A stretch of DNA of 64,000 nucleotides from an uncultured Candidatus Micrarchaeota archaeon (GCA_903884505.1 CAISET010000015.1:10819-74818); one strand, 5' to 3'. Numbered from the stretch's first letter, positions 6,844-57,189 are shown. Notes: generated by a model not told the origin, from the sequence alone. Program-made: numbers and translations.

Positions 6844-9018
6844 ATGTATAAGCAGGCCGTTTCCGCTGCACAGGATGAAAAGGCAAAACCGAACGGCAGG
6901 CGCCTTCTTTCCTCTCTCGAAGCCGAACAGCTTCTCAATAAGTACGACATCACCCTGGCAAAGAGCATGATGCTCCCGCTCGGCGAGATAAACGAATTCA
7001 CGCTGAAGGCCGCTGCCAAGCTCGCAAGGGAGTTCGCAGACGAAACCAAGGGCACATTCGCAATCAAGCTCATTTCGCCCGACGCAGTCCACAAGTCCGA
7101 CGAGGGCTTCGTCCGGCTCGGCGTGCGCCCGAAAAAAATCGAGGACGCACTCTTCGAAATCTGCTCAAGCGCGAAAAGCAAGAACTACAAGATTGAAGGA
7201 ATCCTCGTGCAGGAGATGGCAAAGGAAGGTCTTGAGCTTTTCGTTGGCGGGAAGCAGGACCCGCAGTTCGGCCCCGTGGTCGTCTTCGGCGAGGGCGGCC
7301 TTCTCGTGGAATACCGCAAGGACCTGCATATGAGAATTTGCTCGGTGAACGGCAGCGACCCCGTGGGCATCAGGATGGACATAGACGAGGCGCGCCGGCT
7401 CATAAATGATGCTGCCATAGTCGAGGTGATGGGGGGCATCCGCGGCCTTCCGAAAAGGGATGCGGAGGCTGTCGCCGGGCTTCTCGTAAACGTTGCTACG
7501 CTTCTCTGCGAGCATCCCGAAGTGAAGGAGCTTGACCTCAACCCGGTAATCTCGCACAAGGAGGGCTATTCAATCGTTGATGCAAGGATAGCCGTAGGCG
7601 GTCCCGAGGGGCTCGAGCTCAGGCGCGAGACCGGGATGGATGCGGAGAAGAAGTTGGAAGGCCTGCGCCAAATCATGCACCCGAAAAGCATCGCGGTCAT
7701 CGGCGCCTCAGAGACCAATCCGACCTGCAAGGCAATCGTTGAGAGGATTAAGGGCTCGAAATTCGGGAAGAATGGCGGGCAGTTCTACCTCGTCAGCAAG
7801 AGGTCTCCGGAAAAGGAAACCATCTGTGGCATGGAATATTTCGGCAGCATCTCCGAAATTCCCGGCAGCGTGGACCTTGTGGTAATCGCGGTCCGTCCCG
7901 ACATAGTGCCGGAGATGCTCAGGGAATGCGGGCGCAATGGCGTGAAGGGCGCAATAATAATCACGGACAAGTTCAAGGAGGCTGGCTTCGCGGAACTGGA
8001 GGAGGAACTCGTGAAAGCCTCAAAGGAGAGCGGCGTCCCATACATCGGCCCCAACTGCGTGGGGGTCATCAACCAGCGTTCGGGCGTGGATACGATCTTC
8101 ATTCCCCACGAAAGCTTCCTCGTGCCCGAGAAGCCCGGTGGCATAACCGTGGTCGCGCAGAGCGGCGCGATGGGGGTTTCCACGCTGCGCATGCTGGTTG
8201 GCAGCGGCATATCCTTCGCAAAGTTCATCTCAGTCGGCAATGCCTCCTGCATCAACACCGTCGACCTGCTCCGTTACCTGAAAGACGACCCTGAAACGGC
8301 CGTGATAACTCTCTATGTGGAGGGACTCCCGAACGGCAAGGAGTTCATGCAGCTTGCGCGGGAGGCCAGCGAAACGAAACCGGTCGTCCTGCTCAAGGGT
8401 GGCAAGTCCGACGCAACCTCCAAGGCAGCCAGCTCGCACACCGGCTCCGCAATAGGTTCCTGGGCCATATGGGAGGCCGCGCTCAGGCAGGCCGGAGTGG
8501 CTAGCTGCGGAAGCCTCGCGGAGCTTGCCGCAGTCTCAACCGCATTTGCCACGCAGCCCGTTTCAAAGGGGAAGAGGGTCGGCGTTGTCACAAATGCCGG
8601 CGGATTCGGAGTGCGGATTGCGGACGAGCTGGATGCGAGCAGGCTCGAACTGCCCCAACCCGGCGATGAGTCGAAGGGCAACCCGCTCGACCTACTGGGG
8701 AATTCGGACACCGAAAGTTTCCTGAAGGCGGTGGAAGCTTTCCTCAAGGACCCGAACTTCGATTGCGTAGTGATAGCGCCGGTCTTCGGAACCGCGGGCA
8801 TCGACGTGCAGGGGCTGGCAGAAGGGATACTCAAACTTTCGAAGGACACCAGGAAGCCCATCATTGTGAGCACGCCCCTCCACGGGCCGGTTGAAGGCTT
8901 CGCGAGAATACTCGGGGAGAACGGCATACCAGTCTGCATCTCGGAAAAGGCCACTGCCAAGGTAGTGCGCTCCCTCTGGGCGCGGGGAAGGTTCCTCGAG
9001 CGCTGCAACGGGAACTGA
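6844..9018 (+). CDS. acd: Acetyl-CoA synthetase (ADP-forming), fused beta-alpha (NDP-forming acyl-CoA synthetase)
   Basis: 724 aa. The N-terminal half is an ATP-grasp domain (ACD beta-like). The C-terminal half has CoA-binding and ligase-CoA domains (SIAVIGASE..., GPNCVGVIN, VVTNAGGFGV). Confidence 0.85.
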   Translation: MYKQAVSAAQDEKAKPNGRRLLSSLEAEQLLNKYDITLAKSMMLPLGEINEFTLKAAAKLAREFADETKGTFAIKLISPDAVHKSDEGFVRLGVRPKKIEDALFEICSSAKSKNYKIEGILVQEMAKEGLELFVGGKQDPQFGPVVVFGEGGLLVEYRKDLHMRICSVNGSDPVGIRMDIDEARRLINDAAIVEVMGGIRGLPKRDAEAVAGLLVNVATLLCEHPEVKELDLNPVISHKEGYSIVDARIAVGGPEGLELRRETGMDAEKKLEGLRQIMHPKSIAVIGASETNPTCKAIVERIKGSKFGKNGGQFYLVSKRSPEKETICGMEYFGSISEIPGSVDLVVIAVRPDIVPEMLRECGRNGVKGAIIITDKFKEAGFAELEEELVKASKESGVPYIGPNCVGVINQRSGVDTIFIPHESFLVPEKPGGITVVAQSGAMGVSTLRMLVGSGISFAKFISVGNASCINTVDLLRYLKDDPETAVITLYVEGLPNGKEFMQLAREASETKPVVLLKGGKSDATSKAASSHTGSAIGSWAIWEAALRQAGVASCGSLAELAAVSTAFATQPVSKGKRVGVVTNAGGFGVRIADELDASRLELPQPGDESKGNPLDLLGNSDTESFLKAVEAFLKDPNFDCVVIAPVFGTAGIDVQGLAEGILKLSKDTRKPIIVSTPLHGPVEGFARILGENGIPVCISEKATAKVVRSLWARGRFLERCNGN

Positions 9019-9028
9019 CGTCTCCCAG

Positions 9029-9042
9029 CTTATTATTTAAGC
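9029..9042 (+). promoter_or_regulatory. TATA box cttattatttaagc, 25 bp upstream of the ATG at 9065
   Basis: AT-rich box in a GC-rich background, with spacing matching the other promoters in the window. Confidence 0.4.
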
Positions 9043-9064
9043 AACCGAAGCGAAAAAATTAGCG

Positions 9065-10228
9065 ATGCACGCTGGCAAGGCCGCACTCCTTTCGAAAATC
9101 ACTTCGCGCTATCCCACTCTCCGCTCAGCACCGCTCAAGGAGACGGTTTCGGGCTCCTCCCCGCCTTCTGTTTTCATCGGCACCTACGGCTACCCGAAGG
9201 TCTTCGTCGGCCCCCTCCTCCCCCCTTTCCTCGGCAACACGAAGCTCTACGACACGCCCGAAGAATGGATTCCGCGGGGAATGGAACAGGCGGACGTGAT
9301 GGCAAAGCGCCTGCAGCTCATCCGCGGGAAGGAGGCGGTCGATGTGCGCGACCAGGGGAAGATTTCCGAACTATCAAGGGAAATAGCGCTCGCAAAAAAC
9401 TCCACAGAGGTTGAGGCCACCTTCAAATCAATTCCAAGGGGCGGCTTCCTCAACGAGGAGGTGCAGCCTTTCGGCCCTTCCGCTGACCTGAAGGATTTGA
9501 GAATAAACGGAGGAAAATGGGACCACAAGCTCGAAAAGGCATACAACGACACCGACCTCCGCGCAAAAGACGCCGTCCTCGAGCTCTATGGGGATGGCGC
9601 GCAATTCTCCGACATCCAGCGCGCATTCAGCGTCGGCGCATTCGGCCTGAAGAAGAACAGGAAATTCGTCCCTACCAAATGGAGCATAACCGCAGTCGAC
9701 AGCACCCTCTCCAGCAACCTTCTCTCCGAAATCCAGGCATTCCCGCTCCTCGAAGCCCCGCAAATCTACGAGTTCGAGTCCTTCAGCAACAAATATGCCG
9801 CGCTCTTCTACCCATCCCTCTGGCAATTCGAGTGGATGGAGGCATTCTTCTCGCAATTCCCCGGCTCCCCCCACATCTCAATCTTTGCCGACCACGAATA
9901 TGCGGAGGGGAAGAAGGAATATTCGCAGGTGGGCGGCTGCTACTACTCGGCAAAGCTGGCAGTTTTGGAGAAGATGAAGGAGATGCAGAGGCAGGCAGGC
10001 GTTCTCATCCTCCGCGAGGCCTACTCCGACTACGTTCCGCTCGGCGTCTGGAATGTGAGGGAGAACCTGAGGCAGGCGGTGCAGCAAAAAGCAACGGAGT
10101 TCGACTCCTTCACCGAAGGCCTCAACTACGCCTTCTCCAGGCTCAAGGTTCCCGAGAAGGACTGGCGCCAGAACAGCGAGACGCTGAAGAATAAATTGCG
10201 GCAGTCTAGCCTTTCTTCTTTCCTCTAA
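9065..10228 (+). CDS. Conserved hypothetical protein (possibly Nre-family-like; weak recollection)
   Basis: 387 aa soluble protein with good coding statistics and its own promoter. No motif was recognised with confidence. Confidence 0.45.
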   Translation: MHAGKAALLSKITSRYPTLRSAPLKETVSGSSPPSVFIGTYGYPKVFVGPLLPPFLGNTKLYDTPEEWIPRGMEQADVMAKRLQLIRGKEAVDVRDQGKISELSREIALAKNSTEVEATFKSIPRGGFLNEEVQPFGPSADLKDLRINGGKWDHKLEKAYNDTDLRAKDAVLELYGDGAQFSDIQRAFSVGAFGLKKNRKFVPTKWSITAVDSTLSSNLLSEIQAFPLLEAPQIYEFESFSNKYAALFYPSLWQFEWMEAFFSQFPGSPHISIFADHEYAEGKKEYSQVGGCYYSAKLAVLEKMKEMQRQAGVLILREAYSDYVPLGVWNVRENLRQAVQQKATEFDSFTEGLNYAFSRLKVPEKDWRQNSETLKNKLRQSSLSSFL

Positions 10229-12750
10229 CGCCCCGCAATCCGCATGAGCGACTCCTTGTGGTCCGGAGTCAACAGGAACTCCGGATCGTAGGCGCGCGCA
10301 TCCTCCAGAAGGTAACGCAATCTTCCGATTGGCCTCGTTTCCTTGAACTTTTCGTAGCCGCAGCCGCCGTATTTCGCCGTCCATTCCACCATCGCGTCCA
10401 TCTCCTGCCGGGTTGGTGCAGAGAGCTGCGAGCGTTCGTCTTTCAAATTTCCGGCCAAGGTATTGCGGAGGATTTCGGGCCTCAGGTCGTCATTGAAAAA
10501 TACGTGCGCAACTTCCAACGCGCTCCGCAACTGCGAGACGGGCCCCTCGTATCTGACCAATGCAAGAGCCTCCCTATTCCATCCCTTTGCCCTCGCTTTC
10601 TCCAGCACTTTCCAGCGCGCCCTGACTTCGGGAGGCGCGAACTCCGCCAGGTCCCGCTGCGTAGAGCAGCGGCTTATCCTCCAGATCCGCTCCCCCAGCT
10701 TGCCGGGCAGCTCTTCGCGCAGTTGTGCGCGCCCCATTTTCCAGTATTCGCGCACGGCATGCACTGCGATGTTTCCTGCATCCGCGAACTCGGTTATGGA
10801 TACCTGGGCATGCATCTTCCGGTGCCATGCGCCCTCCAGGCGCTCCTCGGCCACCCCGGCCGCCACCTTCAGCCGCTGGACAAGCGCCTCCTCGCGCGCA
10901 ACGCGCAGCCGTTCCACCCGCGCTTTCAGTTTCGCCGGAAGGACGTTCTCGCGCCGCAGCGCGCCGCTGGGCACGAATAGATACACAAGCCTCGGCTCGG
11001 AGATGTTTGCGGCCTTCGCGGCGCCGGATATTGGCATCAGGAGCGTAGCGGCCCTCCTCCCCGCGCGCATCTCTTCCACGTCTTCCTCGAGGAACTCGAC
11101 CGCTTTTTCGGCGCACTTGAGGTACGTTCTCCTCCATTCGGCGGGGAGCCGCTCGACGCGCATCCTCAGCCCGTCCGGGAGATTCTTGCGCCAAGCGCCG
11201 GCGCTCGGCTTGAAGAAATCGTCAAACTTCCGCGCCTTCAAGTTCCCCTCCTTCGCGGCCTTCGAGATTGGCATCGTGAACTTCGCGCGCTTCCTCCCGG
11301 CCTTAATTTCCCTCAGGTCATTCTCAAGCCATCCTACAAATTTCCCGAGGCATTCGTTGAAGTGCCTCTCATGCGCACCCATGAGGCTCTCGATGCGGTT
11401 TCTGAGGGCTTTCGGGAGGTTCTCGCGCCTCTTGGCATTGCTTGGCCTGAAATAATTTTCTAAGGTGCCCCATTCGATGTTGCCCGCTATGGCAGCATCC
11501 GAGACAGGCATAACGGAAACCGCCTTCCGCTTGCCCGCCTTCATCCCGGCAAGATAATCTTCGTAGAACTTGACCGATTTCTCAAGGCATTCATGGAAGT
11601 GCTTCTCATACGCACCCATGAGCTTCTCAATCCGTTTTCTGAGGCCGTCCGGAAGGTTCTTGCGCTGCTCGGCTTTGCTTGGGACGAAATAATCGGTTAA
11701 GGTGCCCGATTCGATGTTGCCTGCCTCGGCGGCTTCCGAAGTCGGCATACGGGGATTCGCCTTCCGCTTGCCCGCCTTCATTTCCCCAAGATACTCTTCA
11801 TAGAATTTGACTGACTTCCCGAGGCATTCATCGAAGTGCCCCTCATACGCACCCATAAGGTCCCCAATCCGTTTTCTGAGGCCGTCCGGAAGGTTCTTGC
11901 GCAACCCGGCATTGCTTGGAGCGAAATAATTCTGCAAGGTGCCCAACTCAATATTGCCTGCACTTGCGGCATCCGAGACAGGCATATAGGAACTCGCCTT
12001 CTGCTTGCCCGCCTTCATCCCGGCAAGATAATCCTCGTAGAACTTGACCGATTTCTCAAGGCATTCGTTGAAATGCTTCTCATATGTTCCCATAAGGCTT
12101 TCGATGCGGTTTTTGAGGCCTTCCGGAAGATTCTTGCGCAGATCAGCACGGTCTTGTGCGAAATAAGCATTTAAGGTGCCCAATTCAATATTGCCCGCCT
12201 TGGCGGCATCTGAGACGGGCATACGGGAAACCGCCTTCCGCTCGCCCGCCTTCATCCCGGCAAGATAATCCTCATAGTATCTGGCTGATTTCTCAAGGCA
12301 TTCAACGAAGTACTTCCCATATTCATTTCTGAGCGATTTGACGCGTTTTCCGAGGCTATCCGGCAAACTCCGATGCCGTTTCAAGTTCCAGGGGGTGAGG
12401 AAACGGGTCAGCGCAGTCGTCTTCATCTTCGCCTCACGTGCAGCATCGGCCATGGGCATTTTCCTGCTCACGGTTTTCTCTCCGGCTTTCATCTCCCCAA
12501 GGCGGTTCTCAAGGAATCCCAGCGCCTTTTCAATTTTGGCGACTGTTTTCCCGACTCCCGGGCGCAGTCCCTCGCCATCGCCGAGCGCAAGCTTTCCAAT
12601 CAGGGCCCCGGGTTCCGGCATCGCCTGCCCGTTGCTAACAGCAAGAGCCTCCCGTTGAGCGACTTCTTTCCCCGCATGCAGCATACGCAAAATTCCGCTC
12701 TTCAGGTATAAATTGATGGCGCCGGGCCTTGCGCAATTGTTGCAGCCCAT
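10225..12750 (-). CDS. Alpha-helical tandem-repeat protein of unknown function (~8 x 78-aa repeats). The probable true start is the internal MLHAGKEV at ~12684.
   Basis: Up to 841 aa. The repeat unit is LPDGLRKRIExLMGAYEKHFxECLEKSVKFYEDYLAGMKAGKRKAxxxMPVSDAAxAGNIELGTLxNYFxPSNAxxRKN. A TATA-like aatttata box lies inside the first 20 codons, ~25 bp upstream of the internal ATG. Confidence 0.6.
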   Translation of the reverse strand: MGCNNCARPGAINLYLKSGILRMLHAGKEVAQREALAVSNGQAMPEPGALIGKLALGDGEGLRPGVGKTVAKIEKALGFLENRLGEMKAGEKTVSRKMPMADAAREAKMKTTALTRFLTPWNLKRHRSLPDSLGKRVKSLRNEYGKYFVECLEKSARYYEDYLAGMKAGERKAVSRMPVSDAAKAGNIELGTLNAYFAQDRADLRKNLPEGLKNRIESLMGTYEKHFNECLEKSVKFYEDYLAGMKAGKQKASSYMPVSDAASAGNIELGTLQNYFAPSNAGLRKNLPDGLRKRIGDLMGAYEGHFDECLGKSVKFYEEYLGEMKAGKRKANPRMPTSEAAEAGNIESGTLTDYFVPSKAEQRKNLPDGLRKRIEKLMGAYEKHFHECLEKSVKFYEDYLAGMKAGKRKAVSVMPVSDAAIAGNIEWGTLENYFRPSNAKRRENLPKALRNRIESLMGAHERHFNECLGKFVGWLENDLREIKAGRKRAKFTMPISKAAKEGNLKARKFDDFFKPSAGAWRKNLPDGLRMRVERLPAEWRRTYLKCAEKAVEFLEEDVEEMRAGRRAATLLMPISGAAKAANISEPRLVYLFVPSGALRRENVLPAKLKARVERLRVAREEALVQRLKVAAGVAEERLEGAWHRKMHAQVSITEFADAGNIAVHAVREYWKMGRAQLREELPGKLGERIWRISRCSTQRDLAEFAPPEVRARWKVLEKARAKGWNREALALVRYEGPVSQLRSALEVAHVFFNDDLRPEILRNTLAGNLKDERSQLSAPTRQEMDAMVEWTAKYGGCGYEKFKETRPIGRLRYLLEDARAYDPEFLLTPDHKESLMRIAGR
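10650..12570. repeat. Intragenic ~234-bp tandem DNA repeats encoding the 78-aa protein repeats (most similar copies ~11400-12330)
   Basis: Near-identical nucleotide blocks, e.g. ggcattc(g/a)ttgaagtgc..tcatacgcacccatgag, repeated with a 234-bp period. Confidence 0.7.
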
Positions 12751-12835
12751 GCCATTTGCCGCACGCTGCGGCAGCGCAGGCCGAGCCGCTGGCGAGGGGA
12801 TTCGGGAGCAAGTCTGCCGTCGAAAACTCTGGCAA

Positions 12836-12861
12836 CCCTTTTAAAGGCTTCCGTTTAAAGG
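12836..12861 (+). promoter_or_regulatory. Two tandem TATA-like boxes (cccttttaaagg / ccgtttaaagg) upstream of the giant surface-protein gene
   Basis: Same ccttttaa-type consensus as the other promoters, in the divergent intergenic region between the repeat-protein gene (-) and the giant gene (+). Confidence 0.4.
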
Positions 12862-12961
12862 TTTCCTTAGTGGTCGCAGGGCATCCGTCGCCAAAGAATC
12901 TTATCCTAAACGAAGGGTGCCCACTATACTTCCCGAATGCGGAGTCCTACGGGGTGGGTGC

Positions 12962-15900
12962 ATGAAAAATAAGAAAAACCGTGGAGGAGCAGGAGATACC
13001 GCCTCCCAAACTGCGGATTGCGTCTTTTCGTCTGCAGGGAAAGCCATGCTTCTTGTCCCGGTTTTGCTCATAATTTTCTCCCTTAGCGCAAGCGCTGCCG
13101 TTTCATTCAGAGGCGACTGGCCGAACGACGGCAACAGTTACCGCGTTGAGATATATGACCTAGGGCAGGCCAGCCCGTGCGACAATGAGTCGGACAATGG
13201 TACTCTGCTGGCTGGCTCAGGAAACATCCAGGGAAACGACCAATTTGATTCCAACGACGAGTATCTCCTTCCTCTATCCTTGACGTCAAGCGGCAACCTG
13301 TACATATATTTCTGCAACTCAGCAGACAACACGACCCTCGTTTCTTACGTGAGGAACACTACGGCTGGCTCCAATGTGGAGCTTGACTTTGGCAAAGTTG
13401 TGGGCACGGCTGCCACAAACAACGATTTGGGCAGCAAATACGTCCACGTATGCGACGCTTTGAACGGCGGCACCAACATAGCATCGAGCTCAGCACTCAC
13501 TGCTGCGGACGGCTCATATACGCAGTATTATTACCTTGACGAGCCTTCGGTTGCAACGGGAGGAACCAACATCCCTAACCTCTACATCTTCTTTGATAAT
13601 GACAACTCAAACAAATGCACCTTTGACGCGACGAAAATAGCGGGCCTTCACGTAATCCCAAGCACGCAACTGCCTTATAACTACGGCGTAAATATCAGCT
13701 ACTCTCCTGGCACGAAACTCAGCTCGAATGCGCACGCCGACATAATGGCGAGCGGCTACCTCAAGGTCCAGCGCGCTGCAGGGGACAATGAATTCGTCGG
13801 CATGACCGGCGAACTGACTGGCGGGGCAGGCGCATACAACCTCTACTACCAGAATCCGGCTACTGGCACGCTCACTGTTTACGTTTACACCGGCGCAGTC
13901 CCGGACACGACTCCCGAAGAGATTATTACGGGATTGGCGAATGGCGCAAGCGGCAATGCGCTTGACCTGTCGGTCAGGATAAGCGGCAGCGTCCCGAGCG
14001 ATGTCGCTACCGTCACAACGACCATCGGCGGACTGACATACAACGTGAGCACGATAGCAGGCACGCCAAAGACGTACAACCTTTACATACCTACGGGCCA
14101 GGCTCCGGCCATAGCGTTCAAGGACGCCGGCGGAGCCACGCTCTTCACCTATAACTACGGCGCTTCGGTTGGCAGCGACGACACGCTCAACGTCGGGAAG
14201 CTCTACGGAAATGTGCATGCGAACCTGGACGGCGCCGGGAACACTATACAGGTGTTTGAGGACAGTGCATGCACCGCGAACGGGAGCATCGAATCGCTTG
14301 CGGTAGTGCCACATACCGCAAACTCTCCGGACTACGTGGCGTATTTCGCTGACGGCAAGAACTCGACGGGCCCGGACTACTGGGTTGGGATAAATGACAG
14401 CGGCTACACCATTTGCGGCAACGGGTTCCAACTGTCAAGCGAAGAGAGGAACATGGACTTCACATCGCTTATAACCGGGACTGTCTCGGCAGGCATATAC
14501 ACTGCAGGTGCCATGGCACTGGACGCCGACGACGACGGCGTTTATTCCGCGGGAGACCCATTCACCACCCACTTCGACACGTCACACAATTACGAGCTTT
14601 ACGTCAACTCGAGCGGTTCGCACAATATACTGGCATTCTCCACGGTGGCAGGCGGCTACCCGGGCACGCTTGAGCTGAACATCTCAAAAACAATAGCGGT
14701 GGATACGACATTTAACGTCGGGCAGGTTGACTGGCAGGCCGCGAACGTCAGTGCGGACCTCACTGGCGCGAGCGCAGTGTGCGGCACAGGCGCGTGCTGG
14801 CTGAGCGTGTACAACGGCACATCGGATGTTTCGTCCAAAACAAAGACCTTCGCTGCCGATGGCAGCCAGTTCTACGCGGTCCCGGCAGGCACGGTCGACT
14901 TCCAGATATGGGGAGATGGTGGCCTCGTATCCTACGTTTCCGGCTACACTCCGGACGCGGATTACCGGGTCACATTCGAGCCAGGGTATAACGTAACGAT
15001 GACTGCGCCGGCGGGCATGATATGGGCCATAACGGGAGGCGGAACTTTCGCGAACTATTCTTCAAATGCAGCTGGAGAGCAGATATACGTGGACAAGTCC
15101 GAGGAGGAGCTTCCGACCACATACACCTACAGCGCGTATACCACTTCCCCGACCACGCTCAGGCTTAGCTGGGGCAGCAAGGACGCCAGTACCGACGCAA
15201 CGTGGGAGGTTGACAAGGTTTCCGGAGCCTCGCCTGCTATCCTAGACGTTTCAGGAAGCGACACGGGTGACATCCAGGTAGCCTCAAATCTTACGGCCTG
15301 CCGTGCAGGAACCTTCGTGAGCAGCGAATTAGTGCAGCCAGCCAGCGGCAACTATGCACAATATTATGAAGGCTCAGCAGCGACCTATTACGTCAGGGCC
15401 AGATATGCAAAAGCAGGCACGGGCAACTTTGATTCGTGCGTCAAATTCTCAGGTTCAGGTGGCGGTGCCTCGGATACGGCTGGTCTCGTCGAGGTGACGG
15501 GCACGGTCCCATCAACCAGCCTTGGAGTCAAGGACCTAACGGAAGTGGGTGCGGATAATGCCGAACTCAGCGGCTGGACTACTGCGAATGATAGCGGAGA
15601 TGATGCAACAACCCTAAGTTTCTACAGCAATGTCTACCACCTAGTCTCACTCAAAGATACTGCGGCAACCACCGCACACGTGAGGTTTTATATCTCCGGT
15701 CCAGGAGTTGCCTTGATAACACAAGAAGACTTGGCCCTTGCCGGAAGCTCAACAACCGTAAACGTTGATGACATAAGGGGCAATGTTCCGGCACTGCTTG
15801 ATACTGCCGTTTTAGAGGGCAGCACAGCGAGCGGTGAGATATGCGGCGGGACACCACCAATCCCCGGCAGCAAAGTTGCTGTTGCTACAGCAAGCGACCC

Positions 15901-18900
15901 GGGCTACAGGCTGTATGCCAAGGCGACTGGGGCATCCTTCTACGTGAACTTCTGTGATACGAATAATACAGAAGGCCTCGGAGCAAACACAAAGCTCCTT
16001 GAAGAGTCAGTCACAACGACCAGCAGCGGTGGGCACACTTTCTTGCTGAATGTTTCAAGGGTAGGTGGCGCGGCGCACGCCGACCTAACTGACGGCGACG
16101 ACCCATTCTCGGTCTATTCGGGCTCAGGCTGCACCACTCCGCTGAGCAGCGAAACCCTTTACGGCCTTAACCCCGGCACCTACGCAGGAAGCGAAAACTA
16201 CTCGCAATACTACCAAACTTCTGGCGCAGGAAACTATTACCTGGGTGTCGTGGAGGACGGAAACACTTCCTGCATGAGGTTCAGCGGAGGCGTAGCGGGC
16301 TCTAATGATGTAGTGGACATAACAACGAAACTGAGCGGCACCGTGCCAACAGCGATAACCAAGGTTGCAGCGGCGAACGCTAGCGGAGACGGCACAATAG
16401 ACGCATTCACAACGGACATAACGGCTGGCGCATACGCACTTTACATTCCATCAGGCTCAGCAACATCTAGCGCACTTGCGTACGAAGGCGCAACCCTCAG
16501 GCTGAACCGGACGAAGGACCTGAGCGTCAGCGACGCGAACTTCGACGTTAATGAGGTGCACGGTGACAAGTCCCTGCTCCACTCGGATATCAGGGGCGGC
16601 ACGTGGTACATCGAAGTCTGGAATACGGGTGGAGGCAAGGTTTCTTCCGAGACCGTGGACATGGGTGGAGGCTCCGGAACATACAAACAGTTCTACGAGG
16701 ACCACCTAGGCTACGATATCCGGATTTACAATGCGTCGCACGAGCTCGCATACTATGTATACGGTTATAACCCGGGAGTCAGTGGCGGAGACGACCTCAC
16801 TTTTGAGCCGGATACCAAACTCACAACGACCGCGCCTACCGGAATCGCGGCGGTGGAGGCTATAGACAAGACTCGCGATGACTTCACATACCGCGACAAC
16901 ACATCGGCACCCTCAAACCCATACTTCACGATGTACGTTGCGAACAGCACCAGCTATGATTTGAACGCCTACACCGACTCTTTCACCACGCTCGGGCTTG
17001 CGAGAACTGTCGCACTGGGAACGGACAAGGACCTTTCCGGCGGCGACTACGAGTGGATTATCGGCGAGATAACCGGCAACTGCGCGAACATCAATTCAGC
17101 CCTGAAACCTGCCGGAGGCCCTGGAGCGATGCACGTTAAAGTTGTCGACGATTACACCAACATCGGCGGCTGGGCAGAATACTCCTCCCAGACCGTTGAC
17201 CTTGTCACAACCTGTGGGACAAGCCCAAGCTATATGCAGTATTACGATGAGTCCGATGTCAAAAACGCGACAAATGCAGACATCGTTTTCACCATATCGG
17301 GCAGTGACTACTTTGTTATCAAAGATTACGCACCCGCGACCAACCCGGACGTCATGACCCTGGAGCCGCAGTATGAGCTTACAATCGTTGATCCTGGCCC
17401 AAGCGACATACAAAGTGCCAAGTTCAACCTTACGGCAGGCGCGCTTGGAACCGGAACTGCGGCCGTCGAGATTGTTGCGGACGGCTCGGCCAACCTAGTA
17501 CAGCTTTCCAGCATTTACCTGCCAGCCAAGAGCGGATATACCTTCCATGCATACACCGCAACTGACCTAAGCGGCGAAGTCCTGGAGAGGAACAGCAAGG
17601 CTATGGCCGCGGATGACGATTGGAATATCGCGGATGTCACTGGCGCGAATGCAAGCATACACGCAGACCTGGCGGATGGAACGCACAGGATATTTGTCTA
17701 CGCAAACGACGACTCCACAATCGTTTCCGGGATACAAAGCGGAACGCAGTACGCGACCGTAGGGGACTACACACTTTACTACGACGTGGATGATGCGGGC
17801 GCTTCAGCCTACATCCAAGTCACAACCAACACCTCAGCCCTCCTGACCAGGTACAAATACGCGCTCCCAGGTCTGGTCGGCGGCGACTCGCTCACATTCG
17901 AGCCGGACACGCTGCTGAACGTGACCTACCCCGCAAGCCTGAACGCGGGCAGCTTCAGCTACAATGACGGCACGTACAACTATTACATAACGGCAGGAGA
18001 GAATGGCGGGGACACCTACGTCCAGAGCGGCTCGGGCTACAACTTCAGCGCCTACACCGGCGCTGCATGGACGACCGAAGTCCTGCGCAGGGCAGGCAAG
18101 GCCGTCGCCCCGGCTACAACCAGCTGGGACATTGCCGAGGTCACGGGCAACAGCACTTACCTGCACCCATACCTCATAGGGCACCAGGTGAAGATATATA
18201 ACAATACGGATACGGGCATGGTTTCCGGGATAGAGGGCGGACAGCAATACGTTACAATCCCCGCGGCTGGCAACAACTACACGATTTACTACGACGTTGG
18301 CGACGCGGACGGTTCAATGTACATACACATAAACAGCCCTGCGCTGCTGTTAACCCGGTATCACTACAACGGCCCCCAGTTTGCAGGCGCAGGTTCGCTC
18401 ACCTTCCAGCCGGACACGCTGATAAACGTGACTTACCCCGCAAGCATGAACAACGGCAGCTTCAAGTACACCGATTCGGGCGGCTTCGATTATCTCATCA
18501 AAGCAACGGAGAACGGCACCTACGTCGAGGCCGATAAGAGCTTGTACAACTTCAGCGCGTACAGCGATGCCGCATGGTCGGCACTCGAGCTCAACCGGAC
18601 AGGCAAGACGGTCACCGCGCCGACGACCCCGTGGAACATCGCAGACGTTTACTGGAACACTACATACGTGAACGGCGATCTTAGCGGAGCCGCAGCGCAG
18701 CTCGAAGTTTATACGACTGCGGGCAGCCTGGTATCATCCGAAACAAGGACCTTCGACGCAGACGACTACCAGTATTACGAAGTGCCCGATTCCGGGAACG
18801 TGGACTTCAGGGTGTACGACAACCCGGGCGCAGCAGTGCTGTTCTACGCCTACAACTTCACGCCGAGCGCGGCCGGAAACACCATGTTCGAGCCATACTC

Positions 18901-21900
18901 CCCGGTAGTCGCCCATGCCCCGGGCACAATACACAGCTGGGCGATACGTGGCCACAATTTCACGTACCGCGACAACACGACTAGCTTGATAATCTACGTA
19001 GATTATCTCGAAGAGTACTATAACACAGACTACATATACAAGGCTTACACCGGCGACTTTGCTGGAGACGTGCTGTCAATGGGGCCCAAGGACGCGAGCC
19101 TGAATCCCCACTGGTATGTGAACACGGTTACGAACCCATACATACACAACGACCTGGTAGGCTCGGCAAACCTGACTGTCGTTTACCTCAATGCAGGCAC
19201 AGATACCGACTGCGATACCGCAACCGCGCTTTCCTCCCCAACGGACCAGATATGGGCAAACGGAATCAAGAAGTATTATGAGGGAGAAGGAGCGGGAGCC
19301 AAGTACGTCGAGATAAAGGTCACCAATGGTTCGTATGTAACGTGCATCAACACGCTCGGCCTGGAACCTGTAGGCGGAGACCAGAACACGGATTATGACC
19401 TTGACGTGAAGACGAACGGCACTGTGAACAGCGGAATCGTGACCGTCTACATAGACTCGAATCCGACTTCAAATGACGACATCTCGCAGGCAACAGTGGC
19501 GAGCGGTTCGGTGAAGCTCTACAATATCTACTGGGCTGGCGCCAGCCCTGCGGACATAAGCTACAACGATTCAACCACTAAGCAACTGGACCTCACAGGC
19601 AGGAATCTCACCACAAACCCAACAACGATAAACGTCGGTAAGGTTTCAGGACTTTCGCATCCGGACATGACCACCGCGCAGGTCTACTTCGATAGTGCAT
19701 GCAACACAACACAACTGAGCACGGAAACCACGGGCGAGCCGTTTAATGCCAGCGGAACACCCCCATATGCGTACCAGCGGTACTTCGAGGACAACGGGAC
19801 ACAGTACCTCGCCGTGAGCGACGGCGTCCACACAACCTGCGGAACCGGCGGCTTCACCCTTTCAAATGAGGACGCAACAATAAACATGGGGAGGATGGTA
19901 AGCGGGTCGACGCCATCATCAACCTATGATGTGGTTACATGGGGAGGACTCCCTGCCGATGCTGACATTGTTTCTATAGCGGCAAATATGAGCGGAGGCG
20001 CAACTAATGACTTCACAACTTCGCCAGTCTCCACAGGGCCAGCGGCTCCAGACGATTACGTGCTGTTCGTTGACTCGGATGCGCTGGGGCTCTCAACAAC
20101 AATGCTGGACTTCTATGCCAACATTACCCCAACTGGCTTGGTGTTTGACAAGGCAGTAGACCTCTCTGCTTTAGACAACGTGACGAACGTCGCAAAGGTG
20201 GCAGGGCTTGCCGATGCGGGGCTCTGGGGAGGACAGTTCAGAGTGTGCGATGCGATACCTTCCCTTGCAGATTGGGGGGGCTGCACGACATATCTTGATA
20301 GCGTGCCCGTTATGCCGGCGAATGGCAGTCTGGCTACGCTCGACTACGACCTGTTCTTTGAGCAGCCAGCGGTAACAGACTATTACGTCGAGCTCCACAG
20401 TACGGGAGCTTACGGGGGAGCGCCATCATACACATACCACTTAGTTTCCACAACCCAATCCGGAGACTACATATACCAGGACTTTGACGGCGTTGTGTTT
20501 GGAACTGTAAACGAGACCTACAATGCAACAGTGCCGATACCAAACGTTGAGGTGAACGTGTACACTGGCATCACAGATCTCGTAAAGGCTTACACCGATG
20601 CCGCCGGTTACTACGAGCTATACTCCGGGAGCTCCAGTGGCCCGATGTTCATTGGCGAGCCTGCCATGCCTTACGGAGTAGCCTACAACATGAGTTTCCA
20701 GAAGGCAGGTTACGTGACGAGGGACTGGAATACAGATCCTAATGACACAACCGATTATTCGACTCCGTTCGTGGACAGCTCAAGCCCATTGGGCGACTTT
20801 GGAATAAACGGCGCTGCCTATCCCCTCGCTGGTGCCATAGGCCCTGACCGATTATACCTCCAGCTTCTCAGCGGGATAATCGTCAATGTTACGGACCTTG
20901 GAGGAAACCCGATAAACGACGCGACCGTCAGCATATATGACTGCAGCTTCAGCAGCAATCCGGCCGACTGCACTACAATCGGAACGTGCACGAATCCGCC
21001 CGGAGGAGTATTGACTGGCAACTGCACATTGGCAGCAGCAAACAACCCAGATGCATATCCGGGGCAGTACTTCTTCGCCGGGACAACAACACCGGGCGAC
21101 TACGTCCAGATACGGGTTGCGAAGGCGCCATTTGACACGCAGTTTGACCCAGACCCAAATGCAAGCGTCAACAATAATATAGGAGGAGGAGGCGCACTCC
21201 AAGCGCTCGTAAAGACAATACGCATGATAAATCCGGCGCCCAAATGCAGCTTGGAAGTCACGGCACCGGGCGGCATGTCCTACCAAGACAGGCAGTATCT
21301 TGTGGTAGCGAACGACTCCGCAGTCAAATTCGTCGTGCAGTGCGGTGAAGCAGGCCTCGACGTCACCGGAGACATGTCTCCGCTTGGTGGAGACCCGCTC
21401 GTCAGCTTCTACCCCGACTACGCGCTCGGAACCGTTTACAACCACTGGCAAGGCATCAACGCGTCGGACGACACCTACAGGCTACCCATCAACGCCTCCG
21501 ACGGAGTCAACACCTGGCAGGGCCTGGGCTACGTTGAAGTTGACGGCACGCCCCCAGGCATCTACGACTACTATCCCCACGGAGGCACGTTCAACACTAA
21601 GAGCGTGACTTTCGGTGTCTGGACCGATGAGATTGCAGTCTGCCACTACGACACTAACCCCAACGACATCTTCTGGAACATGTCCTACACGATGGCAGGC
21701 GACGGATCGCAGCACACCGGAATGGTCTATGCCGACAATGGCGCAAACACGGTTTACGTAAGATGCGCAGACCGCTTAGGCAATGCAATGAACACAAGCC
21801 AGGAAATAAGCTTCAACGTCGACGCAGTGGCGCCAAGCGTAACCAACGTAAGCCCGGCATACCTCATCAAGCCGTACAATGCAACCAACCGGGGCAACGT

Positions 21901-23287
21901 CTCCATAATGACGGACATGGACGCGGATTGCAGGTGGGACGCGGCCGAGATGAACTATACCAACATGCCCCTTAACCACAGCTTCAACACTACGGGTGGC
22001 CACTGGGCCAACCTTGCGAACGCAACTCCGGGCCAGGGCCTCAACATGTTCTTCATCCGCTGCAGGAGCAAGGGAGGAAGCGCAATCGAGATGAGCTCGT
22101 CAGCGCTGTTGGCCTTCAACTATGACACGATTCAGCCCACGATATACGGGCTGGGCTGGTATCTGGACGATGGGGCGCAAAAAATGTACCTGGACTTTGC
22201 GTCCGATGAGCCGCTCGACCTGAGCTCGCTCGCCCTGACATTCAACAACACCCCGATGACCCATGACGGCGGCAACGGCATGAACTTCGTATACAGCTTC
22301 AACTACTCTGCACTCCCCGATGGGACCTACGAAGTCAACATGACGTCATGCAAGGACCTTGCGGGCAACATATGCGTGCAGAGCGGCGTGCTACTCGGCG
22401 AGTTCCCATTCGATGTGACAATCGACAGGGCGGCGCCCGCTATATCCGGTGTCGGCTACAACGCGAGCACGTGGAACCTTACTGCCACGACCAATGAGAG
22501 CGCGACCTGCAAGTGGTCATGGGCGAATGAGGACTACTGGGACATGCCGAATGCAATGACCGGGTCGGGCACGGGCCACTTCGCATTGGTGCCACTGCCT
22601 GAAGGGTCATACAACATCTACATCAAATGCGCGGACGGGTCATACAACGTCGGCAACTATACCTACAGCGTGAGCGTGGATACGATGCCGCCGGTGATAA
22701 CCGCCTCGAGCCCGACCGGCGTAATCGCAACGAGCTCGCCAACGCTCAACGTGACGACGAATGAGGCGTCAATCTGCAGGTATGCAACCAGCGCGTTCAA
22801 CTATGACGCGGGCGGCATTCTGATGGACAACACAACGAGCGGGCTTGTGCACACGAAGCCGCTGAGTGGGCTGAATGACAGCACCTATCTCTACTATGTG
22901 CTCTGCCGCGACGCTGCAGGGAACACGATGGCTTCGCCGCTGCCCATAACCTTTGTCATAGACACCCGCGGCAACTTCAACTACACCTATGACCTGAGCG
23001 TGGGCTGGAACAACTTCTTCCTGCCGAGGATAGTCCTCCAGAACTTCACCTCGCTTGGAGGAAACTACACGGTCAAGAACGTGCTCGAGACAAAGGGCGG
23101 ACTGACAAACACGAGCTACAACATGCTGTATTACAGGAACGCCACTTCGTGCCCGGCGCAGAACGGAAGCTGCTGGAGGTCGTATGTGCCCGGAGACACG
23201 GCGAACGACCTGACGGAGTTCAACGACTGGGACAACCTGCCTTACTGGATACACATGCTGCTGGCAGACAGGCTGGAGATACCGTAA
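12962..23287 (+). CDS. Giant secreted cell-surface protein (~3440 aa; adhesin/S-layer-associated type, heavily N-glycosylation-sequon rich). Alternative starts are GTG 12917 and ATG 13046.
   Basis: Single 10.3-kb ORF. The N-terminal signal peptide is MLLVPVLLIIFSLSASA. Composition is biased to N/T/S/G/Y/D with very frequent N-x-S/T sequons. There are at least 6 internal ~170-300-aa repeats (e.g. GGDSLTFEPDTLLNVTYPASLNAGSF / GAGSLTFQPDTLINVTYPASMNNGSF) and C-terminal ~95-aa Cys-bracketed domains (C(R/K)(W/Y)...Y(Y/L)YV(L/K)CxDxxGN). Confidence 0.8.
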   Translation: MKNKKNRGGAGDTASQTADCVFSSAGKAMLLVPVLLIIFSLSASAAVSFRGDWPNDGNSYRVEIYDLGQASPCDNESDNGTLLAGSGNIQGNDQFDSNDEYLLPLSLTSSGNLYIYFCNSADNTTLVSYVRNTTAGSNVELDFGKVVGTAATNNDLGSKYVHVCDALNGGTNIASSSALTAADGSYTQYYYLDEPSVATGGTNIPNLYIFFDNDNSNKCTFDATKIAGLHVIPSTQLPYNYGVNISYSPGTKLSSNAHADIMASGYLKVQRAAGDNEFVGMTGELTGGAGAYNLYYQNPATGTLTVYVYTGAVPDTTPEEIITGLANGASGNALDLSVRISGSVPSDVATVTTTIGGLTYNVSTIAGTPKTYNLYIPTGQAPAIAFKDAGGATLFTYNYGASVGSDDTLNVGKLYGNVHANLDGAGNTIQVFEDSACTANGSIESLAVVPHTANSPDYVAYFADGKNSTGPDYWVGINDSGYTICGNGFQLSSEERNMDFTSLITGTVSAGIYTAGAMALDADDDGVYSAGDPFTTHFDTSHNYELYVNSSGSHNILAFSTVAGGYPGTLELNISKTIAVDTTFNVGQVDWQAANVSADLTGASAVCGTGACWLSVYNGTSDVSSKTKTFAADGSQFYAVPAGTVDFQIWGDGGLVSYVSGYTPDADYRVTFEPGYNVTMTAPAGMIWAITGGGTFANYSSNAAGEQIYVDKSEEELPTTYTYSAYTTSPTTLRLSWGSKDASTDATWEVDKVSGASPAILDVSGSDTGDIQVASNLTACRAGTFVSSELVQPASGNYAQYYEGSAATYYVRARYAKAGTGNFDSCVKFSGSGGGASDTAGLVEVTGTVPSTSLGVKDLTEVGADNAELSGWTTANDSGDDATTLSFYSNVYHLVSLKDTAATTAHVRFYISGPGVALITQEDLALAGSSTTVNVDDIRGNVPALLDTAVLEGSTASGEICGGTPPIPGSKVAVATASDPGYRLYAKATGASFYVNFCDTNNTEGLGANTKLLEESVTTTSSGGHTFLLNVSRVGGAAHADLTDGDDPFSVYSGSGCTTPLSSETLYGLNPGTYAGSENYSQYYQTSGAGNYYLGVVEDGNTSCMRFSGGVAGSNDVVDITTKLSGTVPTAITKVAAANASGDGTIDAFTTDITAGAYALYIPSGSATSSALAYEGATLRLNRTKDLSVSDANFDVNEVHGDKSLLHSDIRGGTWYIEVWNTGGGKVSSETVDMGGGSGTYKQFYEDHLGYDIRIYNASHELAYYVYGYNPGVSGGDDLTFEPDTKLTTTAPTGIAAVEAIDKTRDDFTYRDNTSAPSNPYFTMYVANSTSYDLNAYTDSFTTLGLARTVALGTDKDLSGGDYEWIIGEITGNCANINSALKPAGGPGAMHVKVVDDYTNIGGWAEYSSQTVDLVTTCGTSPSYMQYYDESDVKNATNADIVFTISGSDYFVIKDYAPATNPDVMTLEPQYELTIVDPGPSDIQSAKFNLTAGALGTGTAAVEIVADGSANLVQLSSIYLPAKSGYTFHAYTATDLSGEVLERNSKAMAADDDWNIADVTGANASIHADLADGTHRIFVYANDDSTIVSGIQSGTQYATVGDYTLYYDVDDAGASAYIQVTTNTSALLTRYKYALPGLVGGDSLTFEPDTLLNVTYPASLNAGSFSYNDGTYNYYITAGENGGDTYVQSGSGYNFSAYTGAAWTTEVLRRAGKAVAPATTSWDIAEVTGNSTYLHPYLIGHQVKIYNNTDTGMVSGIEGGQQYVTIPAAGNNYTIYYDVGDADGSMYIHINSPALLLTRYHYNGPQFAGAGSLTFQPDTLINVTYPASMNNGSFKYTDSGGFDYLIKATENGTYVEADKSLYNFSAYSDAAWSALELNRTGKTVTAPTTPWNIADVYWNTTYVNGDLSGAAAQLEVYTTAGSLVSSETRTFDADDYQYYEVPDSGNVDFRVYDNPGAAVLFYAYNFTPSAAGNTMFEPYSPVVAHAPGTIHSWAIRGHNFTYRDNTTSLIIYVDYLEEYYNTDYIYKAYTGDFAGDVLSMGPKDASLNPHWYVNTVTNPYIHNDLVGSANLTVVYLNAGTDTDCDTATALSSPTDQIWANGIKKYYEGEGAGAKYVEIKVTNGSYVTCINTLGLEPVGGDQNTDYDLDVKTNGTVNSGIVTVYIDSNPTSNDDISQATVASGSVKLYNIYWAGASPADISYNDSTTKQLDLTGRNLTTNPTTINVGKVSGLSHPDMTTAQVYFDSACNTTQLSTETTGEPFNASGTPPYAYQRYFEDNGTQYLAVSDGVHTTCGTGGFTLSNEDATINMGRMVSGSTPSSTYDVVTWGGLPADADIVSIAANMSGGATNDFTTSPVSTGPAAPDDYVLFVDSDALGLSTTMLDFYANITPTGLVFDKAVDLSALDNVTNVAKVAGLADAGLWGGQFRVCDAIPSLADWGGCTTYLDSVPVMPANGSLATLDYDLFFEQPAVTDYYVELHSTGAYGGAPSYTYHLVSTTQSGDYIYQDFDGVVFGTVNETYNATVPIPNVEVNVYTGITDLVKAYTDAAGYYELYSGSSSGPMFIGEPAMPYGVAYNMSFQKAGYVTRDWNTDPNDTTDYSTPFVDSSSPLGDFGINGAAYPLAGAIGPDRLYLQLLSGIIVNVTDLGGNPINDATVSIYDCSFSSNPADCTTIGTCTNPPGGVLTGNCTLAAANNPDAYPGQYFFAGTTTPGDYVQIRVAKAPFDTQFDPDPNASVNNNIGGGGALQALVKTIRMINPAPKCSLEVTAPGGMSYQDRQYLVVANDSAVKFVVQCGEAGLDVTGDMSPLGGDPLVSFYPDYALGTVYNHWQGINASDDTYRLPINASDGVNTWQGLGYVEVDGTPPGIYDYYPHGGTFNTKSVTFGVWTDEIAVCHYDTNPNDIFWNMSYTMAGDGSQHTGMVYADNGANTVYVRCADRLGNAMNTSQEISFNVDAVAPSVTNVSPAYLIKPYNATNRGNVSIMTDMDADCRWDAAEMNYTNMPLNHSFNTTGGHWANLANATPGQGLNMFFIRCRSKGGSAIEMSSSALLAFNYDTIQPTIYGLGWYLDDGAQKMYLDFASDEPLDLSSLALTFNNTPMTHDGGNGMNFVYSFNYSALPDGTYEVNMTSCKDLAGNICVQSGVLLGEFPFDVTIDRAAPAISGVGYNASTWNLTATTNESATCKWSWANEDYWDMPNAMTGSGTGHFALVPLPEGSYNIYIKCADGSYNVGNYTYSVSVDTMPPVITASSPTGVIATSSPTLNVTTNEASICRYATSAFNYDAGGILMDNTTSGLVHTKPLSGLNDSTYLYYVLCRDAAGNTMASPLPITFVIDTRGNFNYTYDLSVGWNNFFLPRIVLQNFTSLGGNYTVKNVLETKGGLTNTSYNMLYYRNATSCPAQNGSCWRSYVPGDTANDLTEFNDWDNLPYWIHMLLADRLEIP

Positions 23288-24676: not shown

Positions 24677-26110
24677 ATGAGCAGGCTCATCCCTTTCCTC
24701 CTTATTTTCCTTGTCTGCAGCATAGCTCTCGCGGATAGCGCGGCGGATGTAAACCAGGCAGCGACTCCTTTTCTGCTGCAGGGTGAAACCTTCACAAAGG
24801 CGCTCCACGTGATAGGGGGGCGCGACTACTACTTCGTGTCCATCAACGGCACGGAATCCATCGTGTTTGCGACTTATGGGGGCGTGCGCCCGGTATCGAA
24901 TGAAAGCGAGCTGAGGGACCTTCTCGCGCAGGAGCTCTCCGAAACGAACGTTTCCGTGGAGGCGTTCCTCCCCAACAGCACCGAGAAGGACAGGATATGG
25001 GGGTATGTGCTCGCTTTCAACGAGAGCAGGAAGAGGGAGCGCGACTGCGCGGCTCTAATAGGCATGGACAGGTTCCCCTGCTATGATTTGGAAACGTGCT
25101 GGCGCGCCTGCTACACCCCCGCATGCCAGACCATGAAGCTGGGCTCCGGCGCCTTTTTCCTCACCCTCGAGCAGAAGATGTACCTCAACATAACGTTCAT
25201 AGGCGGCAACATGTCGGAATTCGGGGAAACGCTCTACGCGCTCTCGCCAAACAGCACCACCACACGGACCGAATTGGAAAGCCTCTTGGGCAACATCCGG
25301 GGCATACGGGAGGCCTGCGGGAATGTCGAGTCAAATTCCATCCAGCAGCGCAGCGGGGTAGGCTTCTGCTACGCGGTGGTATACGAATATGGGGGGCTGA
25401 TAAATGCGTCCGCGGATATAACGCGCAGGAGGGATGCGCTGATGCCCCTCTTCACAGCGGATGAGACCGCTTCGCTGCTCCACAACCGCACGCTCGAGCG
25501 GCTCGGGGTGAAGGAGGCCAACCTTGCCCGCCCGCTATGCCTCCAGGTGAAGGGCGATGCCGAGGTGGAGCTCGGGCGGGCCAAGGCGAGCGCAAACCGG
25601 GCCCTCTCGCTGGTCTCATCCGCGGAAATCTCTTCGGATAAGCAGGAGCTGGATGCGTCATATGCTGGCCTGGACTGCGCGAACTCGTCAAACCAGGGGA
25701 TACGGGCATTCAACTCATCATTCTACCGCATCTCCGCGGGCCTGAACGCTGCCGCGTCCAGTGCCATACGCGCGTATGAAAGCACCTCGCAGAAGCTGAA
25801 TGGCTCGAAATCCCAGCTTTCCGCGCTTCAGGCGCAGGCCCCGAACGATGAGGAGGTGCAGGCGGTTGCGGCAAGCATCGCGGCCCTGGACTCGCGGCTC
25901 AGGGCGATGCCCAATCCGGAAGAGCTGCCGCAAATCAGCGCGGAGATAGGCGGCAACACCTCGAGGATGGCGGAGCTGAAAGCGCAGTTTGAGCAGCGGC
26001 AAACCTTCAACTACTACGCGTTAGGCGCGGGCGCAGTTCTCATCGCCATGGCGATTTTTGTCGCCGCAAGGGCCATGAACTCCACCCCAAAGAAGAAGAG
26101 CAGGGGCTGA
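24677..26110 (+). CDS. Secreted, C-terminally membrane-anchored protein with a coiled-coil region (unknown function; third gene of the surface-protein operon)
   Basis: 477 aa: N-terminal signal MSRLIPFLLIFLVCSIALA, many N-x-S/T sequons, an Ala/Gln/Ser-rich helical segment, and a C-terminal TM helix plus KKKSRG tail. An RBS-like gaggggt lies 8 bp upstream. Confidence 0.6.
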   Translation: MSRLIPFLLIFLVCSIALADSAADVNQAATPFLLQGETFTKALHVIGGRDYYFVSINGTESIVFATYGGVRPVSNESELRDLLAQELSETNVSVEAFLPNSTEKDRIWGYVLAFNESRKRERDCAALIGMDRFPCYDLETCWRACYTPACQTMKLGSGAFFLTLEQKMYLNITFIGGNMSEFGETLYALSPNSTTTRTELESLLGNIRGIREACGNVESNSIQQRSGVGFCYAVVYEYGGLINASADITRRRDALMPLFTADETASLLHNRTLERLGVKEANLARPLCLQVKGDAEVELGRAKASANRALSLVSSAEISSDKQELDASYAGLDCANSSNQGIRAFNSSFYRISAGLNAAASSAIRAYESTSQKLNGSKSQLSALQAQAPNDEEVQAVAASIAALDSRLRAMPNPEELPQISAEIGGNTSRMAELKAQFEQRQTFNYYALGAGAVLIAMAIFVAARAMNSTPKKKSRG

Positions 26111-49632: not shown

Positions 49633-49640
49633 GCCCAGAA

Positions 49641-49670
49641 CTTTTATTAATAGCATTAATAAGCTTTTAG
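49641..49670. promoter_or_regulatory. Bidirectional promoter with perfect palindrome TTATTAAT-AGC-ATTAATAA flanked by cttt/aagctttta
   Basis: The only AT-rich island between the divergent pilus-assembly operon (-) and the gene at 49696 (+). TATA-like halves sit ~25 bp from the starts on each strand. Confidence 0.5.
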
Positions 49671-49695
49671 GTGTCATTATAAACGTCGTGATGCC

Positions 49696-57075: not shown

Positions 57076-57150
57076 CCCCAAAAGCCAGCCTGAACAGCCT
57101 TCCGCCATTTCCCCGCAGTGGCGTCCTTGCGCAGAACCGGCAAAAGCGCC

Positions 57151-57166: not shown

Positions 57167-57189
57167 CACCTTCTGCCCAGTCTTCCCGG

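Follow-up and report, generated by a model that had tools for sequence, protein, structure and literature searches.

A lineage-restricted archaeal protein built of eight tandem 79-residue helical units, possibly a multivalent nucleic-acid-binding array

In a 64,000-nucleotide stretch of DNA from an uncultured Candidatus Micrarchaeota archaeon (GCA_903884505.1, CAISET010000015.1:10819-74818; the whole of this stretch is hereafter called the window), positions 10225-12750 of the minus strand hold an open reading frame (ORF) that runs from an ATG to a stop codon (10225-10227), is the longest one there and encodes a protein of 841 amino acids (aa). An earlier annotation made from the sequence alone, referred to here as the original prediction, had described this ORF as an all-helical protein of about eight tandem repeats, each with a helix-turn-helix (HTH)-like motif, and had proposed that it might be a modular nucleic-acid-binding scaffold comparable to TALE or PUF proteins. 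Our analysis confirmed the ORF and its strand. The encoded protein is strongly basic (isoelectric point 9.66, net charge +41), and no signal peptide or membrane segment was found in its sequence. We conclude that the gene, which comes from an uncultivated archaeon, is genuine, maintained by selection and restricted to its lineage, and that its product might bind nucleic acid by means of the repeated motif.

The array comprises eight tandem units, the first of them partial, and its period is exactly 79 aa or 237 bp, which corrects by one residue the 78 aa and 234 bp initially given. The motif MP[VIT]S.AA recurs at aa 98, 177, 256, 335, 414, 493 and 572, and LP..L at aa 129, 208, 287, 366, 445, 524, 604 and 681, while Tandem Repeats Finder reported a 237-bp array of 4.1 copies with 79% matches. 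A hidden Markov model (HMM) made only from the units R1 to R4 found the other four independently (R0 with 27.8 bits, R5 with 78.4, R6 with 61.2 and R7 with 22.0), at conditional E-values of 1e-10 to 8e-9 or better; this gives eight units in all, and the repeat consensus first reported was right. All units lie on the minus strand. The array starts with R0 (aa 50-128, 12367-12603), which is degenerate and keeps only part of the long helix described below, and continues with R1 (aa 129-207, 12130-12366), R2 (aa 208-286, 11893-12129), R3 (aa 287-365, 11656-11892), R4 (aa 366-444, 11419-11655), R5, the most basic unit with a net charge of +10 (aa 445-523, 11182-11418), R6, of 80 aa (aa 524-603, 10942-11181), and R7, of 77 aa and the most degenerate (aa 604-680, 10711-10941). 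The vestigial start of a ninth unit, LPGKLGERI, at aa 681 opens a non-repeat, helical C-terminal region of about 160 aa (aa 681-841, 10225-10710), for which no relatives were found. No further copies of the repeat were detected in the window or in related loci.

Pairwise identity among R1 to R4 was 71-83% for DNA and 57-80% for protein, the number of synonymous substitutions per site (dS) between units was 0.35-0.8, and the longest exact repeat internal to the array measured 38 bp. These values imply that the amplification is old. The notion that the underlying DNA repeats are nearly identical, and with it that of a recent expansion or concerted evolution, could not be upheld. The ratio of nonsynonymous to synonymous substitution rates (dN/dS) between units was 0.25-0.56, and the array is under purifying selection.

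Several observations bear on the reality of the gene. The guanine-plus-cytosine (GC) content at the three codon positions (GC1/2/3 = 0.59/0.43/0.70) matched that of the neighbouring genes, and this pattern vanished in shifted frames. An independent assembly (ENA ERZ18627939, scaffold_1049) was 100% identical to the window over 8496 bp, the entire array included, and the identical protein with the same neighbours was present in at least four more assemblies (ERZ1426812, -813, -835 and -843), that is, in at least five altogether. As exact identity between copies extends over 38 bp only, reads and k-mers resolve the copies, which makes a repeat collapse unlikely, and no sign of such an assembly artefact was found. 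A scaffold from a sister sample (L011) matched the window at 99.98% up to position 12454, just before the array, and the terminal 33 nt past this breakpoint (L011 5635-5667) match nothing in the window; we read this break as a contig-end effect, the alternative being a structural variant or a variant junction.

The true start codon is uncertain, since the gene start was called differently between assemblies, at M1 (841 aa), at M23 or at M44 (798 aa). The two alternative ATG codons lie at 12684 (M23) and 12621 (M44) on the minus strand, within a non-repeat N-terminal leader (aa 1-49, 12604-12750) that had a low predicted local distance difference test score (pLDDT) in the full-length structural model. 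Inside the long ORF, a TTTATA hexamer at 12712-12707 on the same strand is located 23 nt upstream of the in-frame M23 ATG; judged from the sequence, it could serve a leaderless transcript as its archaeal TATA box, in which case the true product may have 819 aa. At the other end, the stop codon of the repeat gene and that of its convergent neighbour, an archaeal Nre gene (Nre_N and Nre_C, E 8e-77), overlap by 4 nt (10225-10228); this leaves no room for a terminator between the two genes, and their transcripts should therefore overlap in antisense.

The repeat protein is an orphan, known from a single archaeal population, and its family is new at the level of sequence and fold searches. A word-indexed search of the full protein against 5.8 billion clusters returned only the protein itself, and repeating it with the C-terminal 161 aa gave no match at all, a weak null given that the parent protein was missed as well. 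An exhaustive profile search, in which an HMM of the eight units was compared with 1.84 billion cluster representatives, recovered the protein, its own contig-end fragment and four marginal matches at E 3.5e-5 to 3.3e-4. Neither Pfam, NCBIfam, PHROGs nor PADLOC provided a credible family, in agreement with the absence of a recognisable family noted at the outset; Pfam rows such as ATG1 MIT and GCK were rejected because they contained zero significant stretches and summed weak matches to the repeats. A repeat-pattern scan of JGI metagenomes and a tblastn search against phages and plasmids found none.

With respect to structure, the full-length AlphaFold model built from the single sequence was poor (pLDDT 50). 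A fragment of two units, R3-R4, was then modelled with the remaining units supplied as an alignment, and this prediction was confident (pLDDT 91.5, predicted template modelling score (pTM) 0.81, four of the five models at or above a pLDDT of 87.8). The model supports the all-helical character proposed for the repeat. Within a unit, helices were predicted at residues 3-39, 51-58, 62-68 and 71-77. The first is an amphipathic helix of 37 residues with a 3-4 hydrophobic stripe, and it is followed by a basic loop (40-50) that carries KAGKRKA; an 8-residue helix (51-58), a 3-residue turn centred on Asn (59-61) and a 7-residue helix (62-68) come next, and a short basic helix (71-77; ..RKN) closes the unit. 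The arrangement of one repeat relative to the next was confidently predicted to be rigid.

With residue 51 taken as position 1, the classical 20-residue HTH frame falls on the predicted helix, turn and second helix. In a comparison in which the register of R7 was set by hand, position 5 was Ala in all eight units, the Asn of the turn (position 9) was kept in seven of them, and positions 4, 10, 15 and 18 were hydrophobic or aromatic throughout; position 8 was Gly or Ala, not a large hydrophobic residue. Within the motif, the most variable columns among R1 to R4 were 62, 66, 67 and 70, corresponding to HTH positions 12, 16, 17 and 20, which form the exposed face of the second helix. Positive charge was concentrated on both sides of this segment in R1 to R6, namely in the loop that precedes it (40-49, +2 to +4) and in the helix that follows (71-79, +1 to +2).

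In support of an HTH-type motif, two of the four non-self matches below E 1e-3 in the exhaustive search were tandem-HTH proteins verified with Pfam, P0006 (HTH_17 at E 1.8e-27, 95.8 bits) and P0007 (TetR_N at 4.5e-7), and they aligned to profile positions 44-75 and 38-72, respectively, the half of the unit that bears the motif. When the repeat alignment was compared with the units of P0006, itself selected with the profile, hhalign gave a probability of 51% (P 1.5e-4) over 30 columns, in register; the score was 24.7, while 200 column shuffles reached 14.6 at most and the reversed alignment 10.0. Together, the predicted geometry, the classical positions and these in-register matches sustain the HTH-like segment of the original prediction, and we consider that there is moderate support for the segment SDAAxAGNIExGTLxxYF being both HTH-shaped and HTH-patterned. 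No homology of the segment to a known HTH family is proven, and its DNA binding is putative.

P0006 merits a description of its own. This metagenomic protein of 391 aa consists almost entirely of eight tandem HTH_17-type modules of 48-52 aa, with the consensus LTEEQLEKITEAHSLxMxxxxAAxYAGVSxxTVxKYWKKQGLKPHNK, and it seems to be a poly-HTH protein belonging to no dedicated family among those used here.

On its upstream side, the repeat gene is divergent to the gene of a giant, 3456-aa surface protein, as had been stated, and the intergenic spacer between them measures 166 bp (12751-12916). This spacer contains two tandem 14-bp quasi-palindromes, CCTTTTAAAGGCTT and CCGTTTAAAGGTTT (12837-12864), each with a TTTAAA. 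Their core, CCNTTTAAAGG, was found twice, with 0.04 occurrences expected, and is present nowhere else in the window. From their sequence, these elements may be twin TATA boxes for two promoters, or else an operator, and a promoter of its own for the repeat gene, as originally proposed, is plausible for an archaeon; a scan for sigma-70 promoters was set aside as irrelevant for this organism. We counted the divergence from the giant gene and the unique tandem palindromic element in favour of nucleic-acid binding.

The divergent ORF itself (12917-23287, plus strand) has an N-terminal hydrophobic segment and is essentially unannotated, its only Pfam match being a weak Big_13 (Ig-like) near the C-terminus; in other assemblies it is called with 3413-3441 aa.

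The repeat gene lies at the edge of a strain-variable island of 23.4 kb (10229-33628), in which it is followed by the 3456-aa surface protein, two further proteins, kinase and aldolase genes, a membrane-fusion/MFS pair and an 817-aa orphan. In a related locus, L003, whose Nre is 81% identical, both flanks are kept, and two unrelated genes occupying about 1.9 kb (7514-9411) replace the island. The flank conserved between the window and L003 on the Nre side comprises ThiM, ECF transporter genes and Nre, and the conserved far flank comprises a small ORF, tRNA-Cys, an AIR-synthase-like gene and a CBS gene. The GC content of the island did not differ from that of its flanks, and there was no sign of an integrase.

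An ADP-forming acyl-CoA synthetase-type gene precedes Nre. The closest named homologues of this Nre, with 51-56% identity, belong to Candidatus Micrarchaeia and Micrarchaeota genomes, and unnamed metagenomic relatives reach 74-96%, so that the gene probably comes from a DPANN-type archaeon. A GTDB scan with Nre retrieved only a 35%-identical Heimdallarchaeota locus, which places the source genome outside that collection. In three other relatives, unrelated genes are found at the position convergent to Nre, and homology of the repeat gene to the genes convergent to Nre in relatives was rejected. A 2053-bp contig of ENA ERZ1426835, which carries P0008, represents a second strain from the same sample, with a 96%-identical Nre; here Nre has a same-strand gene on its downstream side and not the convergent repeat gene, a sign that the latter may be variably present or absent in the community.

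It is also of note that very large proteins of the NosD or right-handed beta-helix type are clustered further along the window (50805-55514, 57118-60465 and 60511-62142, plus strand), two of them with Big_1/invasin Ig domains, and that a type IV-pilus-type ATPase (T2SSE; 46932-48443, minus strand) lies upstream of this cluster. Four ORFs had no Pfam match at the thresholds used: the 817-aa orphan (31175-33628, minus strand), one of 452 aa (38105-39463, minus strand), one of 406 aa (48457-49677, minus strand) and one of 477 aa (24677-26110, plus strand).

Regarding function, we tentatively favour a multivalent nucleic-acid-binding protein, probably for DNA, as a possible explanation of these data; the binding itself, the geometry of the spine, the target and a regulatory role are what we infer. 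The repeat protein would be a cytoplasmic, strongly basic, all-alpha protein whose long helices would stack into a rigid spine displaying up to eight HTH modules at regular intervals. The HTH modules, together with the basic loops that flank them, would each contact a separate stretch of nucleic acid, most probably double-stranded DNA, and the protein as a whole would bind it multivalently. Such binding might serve an architectural or regulatory role, possibly for the strain-variable island to which the gene belongs, including the divergent gene of the giant surface protein and its promoter. A more specific version of this proposal is that the protein represents an unseen class of DNA-binding array, in which a rigid spine of 37-residue helices would hold eight HTH modules a constant distance apart, the residues exposed at positions 12, 16, 17 and 20 differing from module to module, and the protein would read a long composite or periodic site or coat DNA in register; we think this version, a new modular scaffold distinct from TALE, zinc-finger, Myb and Pax proteins, unlikely.

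The following results weigh against nucleic-acid binding. In the sequence searches, no Pfam HTH family was matched by the whole protein at E<=1 or by one or three units at E<=10, and the gathering threshold of HTH_17 (PF12728) was not reached. All matches of the repeat profile in the PDB sequence search had E > 0.1, the Pitx2 homeodomain appearing there with only E 0.7, and an HTH-only profile had no PDB match; with hhalign, six homeodomains gave a probability of 2%. The comparison with P0006 carries a bias, because that protein had been picked by the query profile itself and the shuffle test is affected accordingly, and P0005, a plainly spurious coiled-coil protein, reached a similar E-value in the exhaustive search. 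Foldseek searches with the two-repeat model were equally negative, with a best E of 1.5 and a query-length TM-score of at most 0.27 against the PDB, and a best E of 0.8 and a TM-score of at most 0.41 against BFVD. As to the motif itself, the presumed recognition helix spans a mere 7 residues, in R1 to R4 the second helix is devoid of basic residues and the HTH segment has a net charge of -1 to -4, and the 37-residue amphipathic helix of each unit would suit a purely structural rod equally well. Finally, a single population underlies the proposed function, and there are no homologues that could support it by comparison.

Several of these points lead to a different reading, in which the protein has no role in nucleic-acid binding and is a scaffold of helical repeats, either structural or protein-binding. 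Its long helices would build a rod resembling spectrin or a solenoid, with the short helices as packing elements or as docking sites for proteins, and it might serve the biogenesis or anchoring of the adjoining giant surface protein. The dominance of a heptad-like 37-residue helix in each unit, the net acidic HTH-like helices of R1 to R4, the failure to reach the threshold of any HTH family, the top, non-significant PDB sequence match to the NUDEL coiled coil (E 0.11) and the location of the gene next to surface-protein genes within the same variable island are all consistent with it. We regard this scaffold as somewhat less likely than nucleic-acid binding: a net charge of +41 with conserved basic clusters flanking the motif and an HTH stereochemical pattern retained in all eight units speak against it, and the only informative remote matches were HTH arrays. 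Furthermore, neither Pfam nor Foldseek related the repeat to TPR, Sel1, HEAT, ARM or spectrin, so that no homology to a known solenoid emerged, and the lack of a signal peptide or membrane segment leaves nothing to tie the protein to the envelope.

The protein could also be thought to bind RNA, in the manner of PUF, PPR or HEAT-like helical-repeat binders, with the basic loops and short helices contacting RNA along a superhelical surface and the resemblance to an HTH being incidental. A basic, all-alpha, tandem-repeat architecture and the presence of the basic residues outside the HTH-like helices fit this idea, but the protein resembles none of the RNA-binding repeat families, the unit has 79 aa instead of 33-36, and the aligned units show no evident triad of conserved aromatic or polar residues for stacking. 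RNA binding thus appears improbable to us.

Less probable still is a programmable array in the sense of TALE or PUF proteins, with every repeat recognizing a single base, or a fixed word of a few bases, by means of some hypervariable residues. Although the variable columns 62, 66, 67 and 70 share one face of the second HTH helix, as this model would have it, the units differ at about 20-40% of all their positions and not at a di-residue, a 79-aa unit with a 37-residue helix cannot track DNA base by base, and no homologues that differ in repeat number or in their combinations of residues are available for deducing a code. The analogy with TALE and PUF proteins drawn in the original prediction is therefore abandoned, for these reasons and for the lack of any sequence or fold match.

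Lastly, there is a very slim chance that the feature is artefactual, whether through mis-assembly of the repeat, by collapse or expansion, or as a non-coding, spurious ORF in GC-rich DNA: the source is a short-read metagenome, one assembly breaks at 12454 with an unmatched tail and the opposite strand also carries long ORFs, but against this stand the identical DNA and protein in other assemblies, copies that reads can resolve, a dN/dS below 1 in this frame, a GC3 pattern like that of the neighbouring genes and a confident structure prediction.

What the protein would mean depends on which of these readings applies. If DNA is indeed bound by its HTH modules, the protein would be the longest natural array of the HTH type, among those met with in this analysis, to be carried by a rigid helical spine. 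It would then recognize DNA multivalently through a new architecture, which might be exploited as a design scaffold. It would also inform on how DPANN-type archaea control strain-variable islands encoding giant surface proteins, which are presumably host-contact machinery. If the protein is only a structural rod, it would be one more lineage-specific orphan. In either case, it is an orphan gene that has grown by internal duplication of a 79-residue unit and has been held under purifying selection. Tandem arrays of HTH-type or helical repeats are a kind of protein already known; it is this family that is new.

Among the known all-alpha tandem repeats, those of TPR/Sel1, HEAT/ARM and spectrin share with the repeat protein their long amphipathic helices. 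They differ from it in the composition of the unit, which here has one long and three short helices of other lengths, and in its strongly basic character; for TPR, Sel1, HEAT and ARM, no Pfam family was matched at E<=1 and no Foldseek match was significant. The TALE, PUF and PPR proteins resemble it in being basic proteins made of tandem all-helical repeats and in the idea of one module per sub-site. Their repeats, however, have 33-36 aa and two or three short helices, as compared with 79 aa and four helices in the protein described here, which has no hypervariable specificity di-residue or triad, its differences being spread over many columns, and which matched none of their family HMMs or folds.

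A closer parallel in organization is offered by the CRISPR-repeat-binding proteins Cbp1/Cbp2 (PDB 2LVS), the Pax paired domain and Myb R1R2R3, all of which consist of tandem imperfect repeats, each an HTH module. The HTH repeats of the archaeal Cbp1/Cbp2, like those of Pax and Myb, are connected through basic linkers, which take part in DNA binding (PMC3597662), and the repeat protein likewise has a basic loop before each HTH-shaped motif. These proteins have two or three repeats of about 45-55 aa that form compact three-helix domains joined by flexible linkers, whereas the eight repeats described here measure 79 aa, include a 37-residue helix each and are confidently predicted to be arranged rigidly (pTM 0.81), and their recognition helix lacks basic residues. 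The unit is not a compact three-helix repeat of about 50-60 aa superposable on 2LVS, 1H88 or 6PAX, and no sequence, profile or Foldseek similarity to Cbp1/Cbp2, Pax or Myb was found.

The HTH_17 or MerR-excisionase-type modules (PF12728), which occur in tandem in P0006, differ from the repeat protein in having Gly rather than Asn at the turn, in the shorter unit and in the absence of the extra 37-residue helix. Nevertheless, the repeat protein is predicted to have the helix, 3-residue turn and helix geometry of these modules and shows their residue pattern, position 8 aside, and the two share an in-register motif, M-x-x-S/x-D/E-A-A-x-x-x-x-I/V-x-x-x-T-L/V-x-x-Y/W-F/W. P0006 is a chain of eight of these HTH_17-type modules.

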